IMG/VR virus record: IMGVR_UViG_2627853638_000001
Coordinates: 1-25,512 of that record
Length of the DNA stretch: 25,512 nucleotides
Reading direction: 5' to 3' (one strand)
Origin: a virus
Lineage: Duplodnaviria > Heunggongvirae > Uroviricota > Caudoviricetes
Below are positions 6,281-7,029 of the stretch, in pieces. The notes beneath the pieces were generated by a model. That model made no database searches. It saw only the letters and a program-made list of their open reading frames with translations, and was not told the DNA's origin. Both the position numbers and the translations under genes were made by a program. Position 1 is the stretch's first letter. Every line of letters starts with the position of its first letter.

Positions 6281-6309
6281 TTGATTTAATTCACAAATAA
6301 AACTATAAT
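6281..6309 (+). promoter_or_regulatory. Sigma70-like promoter for the methyltransferase moron
   Basis: TTGATT (6281-6286), 17-bp spacer, TATAAT (6304-6309). Confidence 0.5.
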
Positions 6310-6321
6310 ATGGTGAAATTA

Positions 6322-6978
6322 ATGAAAAAAAACACAGATGATGGGGCTAAAATTTACACACCAATTACCCTAAAGCTTTATGACTGGTGGGTTTTGGGAG
6401 TATCAAATCGGCTTGCATGGGGATGTCCTACAAAGGAACACCTTCTTCCACACTTTCTGGAACATTTAGGTAACAACCATCTGGATATTGGTGTTGGAAC
6501 TGGGTTTTACCTTACTCACGTACCTGAGAGTAGTCTGATATCTTTAATGGATTTGAACGAAGCTAGCCTGAACGCGGCATCTACAAGGGCTGGGGAATCA
6601 AAAATTAAACATAAAATTAGCCATGATGTTTTTGAAACTTATCCCGCGGCGTTACATGGTCAATTTGATTCCATTTCCATGTTTTACCTTCTTCACTGCC
6701 TGCCTGGAAATATATCTACAAAAAGCTGTGTAATACGCAATGCGGCGCAGGCCTTAACTGATGATGGAACTCTATACGGAGCCACAATTCTTGGCGATGG
6801 AGTTGTGCACAATAGCTTCGGTCAAAAACTGATGCGCATTTACAATCAGAAAGGCATCTTTTCAAACACAAAAGATTCCGAAGAAGGCTTAACACATATA
6901 CTCTCAGAGCATTTCGAGAATGTTAAAACCAAGGTTCAAGGTACTGTAGTAATGTTTTCTGCTTCAGGGAAAAAATAG
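6322..6978 (+). CDS. Class I SAM-dependent methyltransferase, substrate unknown, 218 aa; AT-rich moron
   Basis: Motif I LDIGVGTGFY, acidic post-I residue (LMDLNE), motif II-like FDSISMFYLLHCLPG. Start placed at the second ATG because the first ATG abuts the -10 element. Composition is clearly more AT-rich than the core genes. Confidence 0.65.
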   Translation: MKKNTDDGAKIYTPITLKLYDWWVLGVSNRLAWGCPTKEHLLPHFLEHLGNNHLDIGVGTGFYLTHVPESSLISLMDLNEASLNAASTRAGESKIKHKISHDVFETYPAALHGQFDSISMFYLLHCLPGNISTKSCVIRNAAQALTDDGTLYGATILGDGVVHNSFGQKLMRIYNQKGIFSNTKDSEEGLTHILSEHFENVKTKVQGTVVMFSASGKK

Positions 6979-6981
6979 CAT

Positions 6982-7029
6982 CCAACCGCAGCACGTTCTT
7001 GCTTAAGACGTGCTACGGTTTCCTTTACG
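6982..7029 (+). terminator. Terminator-like hairpin after the methyltransferase gene
   Basis: Begins with the same CCAACCGCAGCACGT 15-mer as the dinI terminator. Stem AGCACGT / ACGTGCT, then a T-rich tail. Confidence 0.45.

Follow-up and report, generated by a model that had tools for sequence, protein, structure and literature searches.

The lambda genes bor and lom and prophage-borne ompT are autonomous, lysogen-expressed genes located in the zone between the tail fibre genes and the attachment site, each with its own promoter, a closing hairpin and a composition that diverges from its surroundings, and they code for envelope proteins with known lysogen phenotypes. The fungal methyltransferases CtvB, AurB, AstB and DovB act in the biosynthesis of citreoviridin, aurovertin, asteltoxin and deoxyverrucosidin respectively, where they O-methylate an alpha-pyrone ring hydroxyl (PMC12312803, PMC7077241); for DovB the O-methylation was shown directly by heterologous expression (PMC12312803). 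Here we describe a class I S-adenosylmethionine (SAM)-dependent methyltransferase gene in a 25,512-nucleotide stretch of tailed-phage DNA (IMG/VR record IMGVR_UViG_2627853638_000001, positions 1 to 25,512; hereafter the window), which is placed like bor and lom and codes for a full-length homologue of CtvB. It lies between a remnant of a tail-fibre-assembly (tfa) gene and ipaH, a gene for a type III secretion system (T3SS) effector. In related phages ompT and lom are among its immediate neighbours, although unlike their envelope proteins its product is a predicted cytoplasmic enzyme.

The gene is ordinary in kind, being prophage cargo that is already known and very common; what we add is its placement in the CtvB/AurB family of small-molecule O-methyltransferases. 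On balance we lean towards the view that it is a lambdoid-prophage moron coding for a small-molecule O-methyltransferase that benefits the lysogen, expressed from its own sigma-70 promoter and ending at a hairpin. We hold with good confidence the narrower claim that the product is a small-molecule methyltransferase, and neither an effector nor a nucleic-acid methyltransferase.

The methyltransferase and its protein family

The open reading frame (ORF) listing for the window starts the gene at 6310 and runs to 6978 on the forward strand (222 residues), and the RefSeq start is likewise at 6310. We set the start at the ATG at 6322, because the family alignment and the PHROG 2132 profile (E 1e-155, 218 of 218 positions matched) begin there, and the relatives also point to it; the upstream ATG at 6310 is ACG in 9 of 75 prophage copies. 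An earlier sequence-only reading of this DNA had described a 218-residue class I SAM-methyltransferase with the motif I sequence LDIGVGTGFY, and this description is correct. Its further remark, that it could not match the protein to any methyltransferase familiar to it, does not survive database comparison: the gene is ybcY/PHROG 2132, one of a large family in which CtvB has been characterised. The RefSeq entry is WP_000239881.1, 'class I SAM-dependent methyltransferase', Pfam detects only generic class I methyltransferase domains (Methyltransf_12/23/25/11), and no NCBIfam family scores above its cut-off.

An AlphaFold2 (AF2) model built with 29 homologues is confident, with a predicted local distance difference test score (pLDDT) of 91.6 and a predicted template modelling score (pTM) of 0.88. 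It has the seven-stranded alpha/beta fold of class I enzymes, and the protein carries LDIGVGTG, the glycine-rich motif I that follows strand beta-1, at residues 54-61 together with D77 (in LMDLN), the acidic residue closing strand beta-2, which is invariant in 42 of 42 family members. Fold searches, which the sequence-only reading had suggested as a check, returned small-molecule methyltransferases only, and sequence searches of the PDB found only generic small-molecule methyltransferases, with E-values of 3.7e-6 or above.

A profile search covering 1.84 billion cluster representatives recovered 1757 clusters at E<=1e-3, among them 415 at E<=1e-30; almost all are full-length proteins of about 220 residues. 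Fungal proteins match the family at very strong E-values. One of these, P0322 from Aspergillus terreus, adjoins genes for a 2509-residue polyketide synthase of the highly reducing type (HR-PKS), an extra ATP-synthase beta subunit and a 473-residue FAD monooxygenase, the arrangement that has been published for the citreoviridin cluster, ctvA-E (PMC7077241), and its 90% cluster includes UniProt Q0C9L6, 'Methyltransferase ctvB' (ATEG_09618). Across 214 of its 218 residues, the window protein shares 40% identity with Q0C9L6 (E 2e-50). Its homology to the CtvB/AurB/AstB/DovB group extends over the full length (218 residues against 229), with the motifs Y..YD.WV...W.C, HxDxGVGTG, DSIS..Y.LHCLPG and F.N..D in common. 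All 21 residues that are invariant in 42 bacterial and fungal members are present in the window protein (Y12, Y20, D21, V24, W33, C35, H53, G57, V58, G59, G61, D77, S117, H125, L127, G153, T155, F180, N182, D185 and G207). Further fungal members also lie in polyketide-type clusters, beside HR-PKS genes; this linkage is found in the fungal members only, and is absent at 80 bacterial species loci and in the phage context, where the genes stand alone.

Among bacteria, surveyed at one genome per species, identity is 98-99% in Escherichia coli, Shigella and E. albertii and then drops to 50-75% elsewhere. Homologues in the lower range occur in Citrobacter, Enterobacter, Klebsiella, Salmonella arizonae, Yersinia (including Y. 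pestis), Erwinia, Pantoea, Proteus, Providencia, Morganella and Photorhabdus, and also in Pasteurellaceae, Pseudomonas, Xanthomonadales and Oxalobacteraceae. The phage allele is closest to proteins of Citrobacter freundii (89%) and Salmonella (78%), whose genes are again in prophage-like or island settings. The homologues of Enterobacter hormaechei, Erwinia, Yersinia and Pseudomonas are found outside prophages, in an ordinary chromosomal context that is stable within each genus; 15-17 Pseudomonas species share the order DUF6388-methyltransferase-enoyl-CoA hydratase-CorA, and there the guanine-plus-cytosine (GC) content of the gene matches that of its flanks. The sequence-only reading had held that its view would fail if the gene belonged to a housekeeping small-molecule methyltransferase family with a conserved non-mobile context. 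Much of this does describe the family, which is nonetheless accessory or secondary-metabolic rather than housekeeping.

Several fungal members (P0131, P0136, P0158, P0278, P0290 and P0322) are 45-63% identical to proteobacterial ones, and a family protein from Endocarpon is 52% identical to one from Pseudomonas viridiflava; transfer of the family between kingdoms is suggested by such comparisons. Copies with 99% identity on short contigs binned in 'Bacillus sp.' and 'Planococcaceae' metagenome-assembled genomes (L017 and L026) are most likely E. coli contamination or mis-binning. An adjacent alpha/beta-hydrolase or carboxylesterase gene that appeared to recur in 2G7b, Enterobacter, Erwinia and Fusarium was rejected as a linked partner, the recurrence failing at the sequence level.

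Expression unit and prophage context

Of 5426 complete E. coli genomes, 3839 contain DNA that is 95-99% identical to a 901-base stretch surrounding the gene, in at most four copies per genome, and the stretch also matches 14 sequenced, viable lambdoid phages (2G7b, ev243, Turner and Kati among them). The gene is the intact form of a pseudogene in the DLP12 prophage of K-12, ybcY (b0562), a name that is consistent with the naming in PMC3946193. In MG1655 the matching DNA, 98% identical, lies in DLP12 between tfa remnants, adjoins appY and ompT and is annotated as frameshifted; it has the same promoter, tfa-remnant flanks and closing hairpin as the window. The two copies differ in that the K-12 gene lacks its start codon and has a -10 hexamer of TATAAC, whereas the window gene is intact, has TATAAT, is followed by a module containing ipaH and the small RNA (sRNA) CssrB, and codes for two private substitutions relative to the common allele, L15I and P106T, both in variable columns of the family alignment. 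The lesion is a deletion of GA at the ATG (at about 6120 in locus L001, against 6322-6324 in the window), beside an A8 run, and it inactivates K-12 ybcY and the copies in ECGI0523 and ECDA1023. Literature searches with the accession numbers and the PHROG identifier returned nothing, those on morons together with methyltransferases found nothing relevant, and none of the papers mentioning ybcY contains functional data.

In phage 2G7b the gene is located between the tail-fibre genes and the end carrying ompT, an alpha/beta hydrolase gene and the integrase gene, in the orientation opposite to the late genes, and this is the classical moron position. The window gene is likewise divergent from both the tfa remnant and the tail fibre genes. 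It has its own promoter and a closing hairpin, is transcribed against the flanking late genes, is followed by variable modules, and differs from its flanks in composition, the GC content of the gene region being about 0.41 compared with 0.50-0.55 in the chromosomal flank, and that of the gene 0.41 compared with 0.46-0.51 for the flanks in a separate composition comparison. We agree with the sequence-only reading that this is an AT-rich (41% GC) moron-type unit, placed in the stretch of cargo that separates the tail-fibre genes from the end of the prophage.

After the hairpin most E. coli have a tfa remnant, O157:H7 has a yciG / ferritin-like / manganese (Mn) catalase cassette, and the window has the CssrB-ipaH module. 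In a prophage of the O157:H7 strain NE92 (L099, 5111-8490) the methyltransferase gene is followed on the same strand by genes for a stress protein of the yciG kind, a pair of ferritin-like DUF892 proteins and Mn catalase, and at seven Pseudomonas loci (L013-L015, L058, L064, L068 and L074) the homologue is just downstream of genes for DUF892, Mn catalase and DUF6388 proteins, the Pseudomonas Mn catalase being about 67% identical to that of O157. This linkage could reflect a tie to the general stress response or could be coincidence. At the argU locus of E. coli M-17 (L098), a decayed DLP12-like remnant consists of ompT, an intact methyltransferase gene, and tfa and integrase fragments beside tRNA-Arg.

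The TTGATT-17-TATAAT promoter reported in the sequence-only reading is present at 6281-6309. Promoter-like sites between 5500 and 7400 are no more numerous than in shuffled sequences (5 found against 5.6 expected), but this site has independent support, beyond chance, from its conservation and from K-12. Its -35 hexamer and spacing are kept in 75 of 75 IMG/VR copies, and its -10 hexamer is TATAAC in most E. coli copies. The K-12 version, TTGATT-17-TATAAC in the ybcY/tfaX spacer, lies under a peak of in-vitro RpoD-holoenzyme binding determined by systematic evolution of ligands by exponential enrichment (SELEX), and the same region carries an H-NS flag (PMC3946193).

The hairpin at 6984-7020 has several roles: it closes the methyltransferase unit on the forward strand, it is exactly the 3' stem-loop of CssrB on the reverse strand, and it is the breakpoint for the differing downstream modules, with the homology of relatives stopping inside or after its 3' arm. 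The hairpin that the sequence-only reading had called terminator-like is present and stable, but a consensus terminator scan did not call it (0 found), and the U-tract that follows is imperfect in the window (UUUCCUUU) and missing from 64 of 80 relatives. A second hairpin on the forward strand at 5935-5980, downstream of a dinI-like gene (AACCGCAGCACG...CGTGTCTGCGGTT, followed by a clean T-run, TTTCTTTTTC), is related to it through a 31-nt direct repeat that is 81% identical, and hairpins of this type seem to mark module boundaries in the cargo zone. An inverted repeat between 6281-6300 and 7165-7184 (75% complementary) we attribute to chance; its right arm is in the ipaH-specific module and is missing from other carriers.

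Proposed activity and competing explanations

In the scheme that we favour, the unit would be transcribed rightward from a sigma-70 promoter of its own, independently of the tail-fibre genes, which are read leftward, and would end at the conserved hairpin. The promoter is within the AT-rich region that is bound by H-NS in K-12, and in a lysogen it may be either expressed or H-NS-repressed. The product would be a soluble, cytoplasmic, single-domain class I SAM-dependent methyltransferase that uses SAM to methylate an acidic oxygen of a lipophilic small molecule. The oxygen would belong to a hydroxyl of the enolic or vinylogous-acid type, with a carboxylate as a further possibility, and methylation would cap both the acidity and the chelating ability of the group. 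Two matches lead us to propose O-methylation of an acidic oxygen: the 40% identity to CtvB, which is the strongest specific evidence, and the top PDB sequence match, to a carboxyl methyltransferase; that a pyrone-like enol specifically is methylated is a tentative suggestion. The benefit would fall to the lysogen and not to virion production, for example if an exogenous or host-derived metabolite were inactivated or altered. AurI, EncK and JerF, from aureothin, enterocin and jerangolid biosynthesis, are bacterial class I SAM O-methyltransferases that act on 4-hydroxypyrone or enol groups (PMC6273487), and they would be functional analogues, resembling the window protein in the proposed chemistry only. 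The heterocyclic-toxin methyltransferase Rv0560c (HtmM) of Mycobacterium tuberculosis is more distant in kind: it has no specific sequence relationship to the window protein, is an N-methyltransferase and is chromosomal in mycobacteria.

A number of observations weigh against this scheme. The K-12 copy is dead, the two-nucleotide deletion having taken out its ATG. The promoter geometry is awkward: a transcript starting about 7 nt past the -10 hexamer would have a leader of about 5 nt and would exclude the GGTGA at 6312-6316, although from its position a weaker candidate site at 6254-6281 would yield a leader of about 34 nt that includes this Shine-Dalgarno-like sequence. H-NS binding may silence the gene under laboratory conditions. 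All-against-all clustering of neighbours at the 80 bacterial species loci found no adjacent polyketide synthase and no neighbour spanning genera, apart from an antisense-ORF artefact inside the gene and generic families. In a neighbour-joining tree the window protein nests within the Enterobacterales, and CtvB is in a separate ascomycete clade; by this placement we regard the window protein as a homologue of CtvB and not an orthologue, and because it is outside the fungal clade the homology informs the class of chemistry rather than the substrate. The best PDB sequence match, a juvenile hormone acid methyltransferase (JHAMT, E 3.7e-6), methylates a carboxyl group.

This last match leads to an alternative explanation, that the enzyme acts on a lipid or carboxylic acid, either as a PmtA-like phospholipid N-methyltransferase or as a JHAMT-like fatty-acid or terpenoid-acid carboxyl methyltransferase, and so alters the lysogen membrane or a lipophilic acid. 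Apart from the JHAMT sequences, the second-ranked Foldseek match is a phosphatidylethanolamine N-methyltransferase of similar size, with template modelling (TM) scores of 0.62-0.66, PmtA is a weak NCBIfam hit (E 0.005), and the N-terminal helix is rich in aromatic residues (YDWWVL). However, identity in these matches is just 16-21%, the NCBIfam score is far under the curated cut-off (16.6 against 390 bits), and the homology to CtvB is far stronger; we consider this explanation unlikely, while noting that it overlaps with the one we favour, a carboxylate being an acidic oxygen too. We give less credence to the suggestion that the gene is neutral or decaying cargo that now has hardly any function, or none, in E. 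coli and Shigella and is carried along between recombination-prone tfa remnants. The inactivated K-12 copy, the pseudogene fragments on its flanks, H-NS binding to the region and truncated forms of 161 residues (445 members) and 130 residues (30 members) would all fit such a history, but the full-length protein cluster has 6589 members, all of the 80 best IMG/VR copies are intact and keep the promoter elements, every family-invariant residue is retained, and in M-17 the gene is intact amid a decayed prophage. The ratio of nonsynonymous to synonymous substitution rates (dN/dS) is 0.06-0.28 for most E. coli allele pairs, which differ by few substitutions, rises to about 0.57 for E. albertii pairs, which differ by very few, and is 0.09-0.11 against Citrobacter and Enterobacter. 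With values well under 1 in most comparisons, the coding sequence bears the mark of purifying selection, and the gene is not a pseudogene in most relatives, which is the other finding that the sequence-only reading had said would refute its view.

Methylation of nucleic acid, in an anti-restriction, defence or epigenetic role, would be in keeping with the frequent carriage of DNA methyltransferases by phages, and the sole PADLOC match is to mad2, although this is not significant (E 0.0027, 14.6 bits). We think it very unlikely. A pattern search of the protein found no (D/N/S)PP(Y/F/W) and no PCQ motif, the single 218-residue domain leaves no target-recognition domain, the top fold matches include no DNA methyltransferase, the close homologues tailor polyketides or come from chromosomal genes that stand alone in Pseudomonas and Enterobacter, and the gene is in the late-region cargo zone, away from the replication and early genes. 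More improbable still is secretion of the protein by the T3SS, as an effector or toxin with a host protein as its methylation target, an idea that draws on its position beside ipaH. The sequence-only reading had noted the absence of a MxiE box upstream of the methyltransferase gene, and we also find none there in the window; the only box is downstream of the gene at 7159-7175, 119 nt before the ipaH ATG, and it belongs to ipaH. The methyltransferase gene and ipaH occur as a block in only 9 of the 5426 E. coli genomes, all annotated ipaHe, against 3839 with the methyltransferase DNA, and the search for co-occurrence proposed earlier lends no support to a link between the two genes. At least one E. 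coli strain, H57, has the same btsS-dinI-tfa-methyltransferase arrangement without ipaH. Given these two findings we conclude that ipaH is a secondary insertion beside an older cargo gene and that the adjacency is accidental. Soil and plant bacteria, as well as fungi, carry homologues on their chromosomes, the protein has the Rossmann fold usual for class I methyltransferases, and neither NleE nor OspZ is among the fold matches listed. Of the three possibilities raised in the sequence-only reading, only a small-molecule methyltransferase is supported, the homology, the fold neighbours, the missing DNA-methyltransferase motifs and the chromosomal homologues in Pseudomonas, Enterobacter and Erwinia all arguing against the effector or toxin and the nucleic-acid-modifying factor.

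Other features and implications for prophage cargo

The features of the unit and its surroundings are collected in Table 1. CssrB and the methyltransferase gene converge, and the 5' end of the sRNA shares 8 nt with the ipaH MxiE box; with the exception of its terminal hairpin, CssrB is part of the Shigella/enteroinvasive E. coli-specific module on the ipaH side. The remainder of the window (9117-25512) is a rearranged prophage mosaic with a DUF4376 gene, a gene for a tail-fibre N-terminal region, a full tfa gene, a Mu gp48-like baseplate gene and a DUF968 gene. An insertion sequence transposase gene (rve) is at 13893-14711, and a gene for a RecE-like exonuclease VIII at 22650-24860.

Table 1. 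Features of the methyltransferase unit and neighbouring elements in the window.
Feature	Coordinates	Strand	Basis and remarks
Tail-fibre-assembly gene, C-terminal remnant	5984..6253	-	Caudo_TAP E 4e-25, profile positions 75-130 of 131 only; divergent from methyltransferase
IS009 RNA (Rfam RF02111)	6027..6246	-	128.2 bits against gathering score of 117; inside tail-fibre-assembly remnant, divergent from methyltransferase promoter
Alternative promoter-like site TTAACC-16-CATAAT	6254..6281	+	Weaker, 9/12 consensus match; putative role
Sigma-70 promoter TTGATT-17-TATAAT	6281..6309	+	10/12 consensus match, best in 5500-7400
Shine-Dalgarno-like GGTGA	6312..6316	+	5 nt upstream of ATG 6322; read from sequence, conserved in relatives
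Methyltransferase coding sequence, YbcY family	6322..6978	+	218 residues plus stop; AF2 model, CtvB homology, 21 family-invariant residues
SAM-binding motif I LDIGVGTGFY	6481..6510	+	Residues 54-63; G57, V58, G59 and G61 invariant across 42 bacterial and fungal members
GC-rich conserved hairpin	6984..7020		Free energy (dG) -18.4 kcal/mol on +, -24 on -; z -3.65
sRNA CssrB (Rfam RF02799, chromosome-encoded Shigella sRNA B)	6987..7166	-	228.9 bits against gathering score of 76; model positions 1-180 of 180
MxiE box GTATCGTTTTTTTACAG	7159..7175	+	Exact, 0 mismatches; only match in window, 0.02 expected by chance
ipaH (LRR and NEL E3 ligase)	7294..8937	+	IpaH_Shig 562 bits; independent module

Among the prophage cargo genes of E. 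coli and Shigella the methyltransferase gene is one of the commonest, about 70% of complete genomes having it in up to four copies, and its annotated start should be corrected from 6310 to 6322. It drops off the list of candidate Shigella effectors, and its closing hairpin is common to the methyltransferase unit and the convergent sRNA CssrB. The sequence link to CtvB and AurB turns a methyltransferase of no assigned function into a biochemical hypothesis that is testable with a defined substrate panel. A bolder extension, which we regard as speculative and rather improbable, is that phages have delivered to about 70% of E. coli and Shigella an enzyme for chemical defence or signal editing, from a family exchanged between Proteobacteria and fungi, which inactivates or rewires a specific acidic heterocycle of the gut or environment. 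If this were true, the candidate substrates would include alpha-pyrone signals or antibiotics, 4-hydroxyquinolones, 4-hydroxycoumarins and tetronates, and the yciE/katN-like linkage in the O157 prophage and in Pseudomonas would point to a possible tie with the general stress response.

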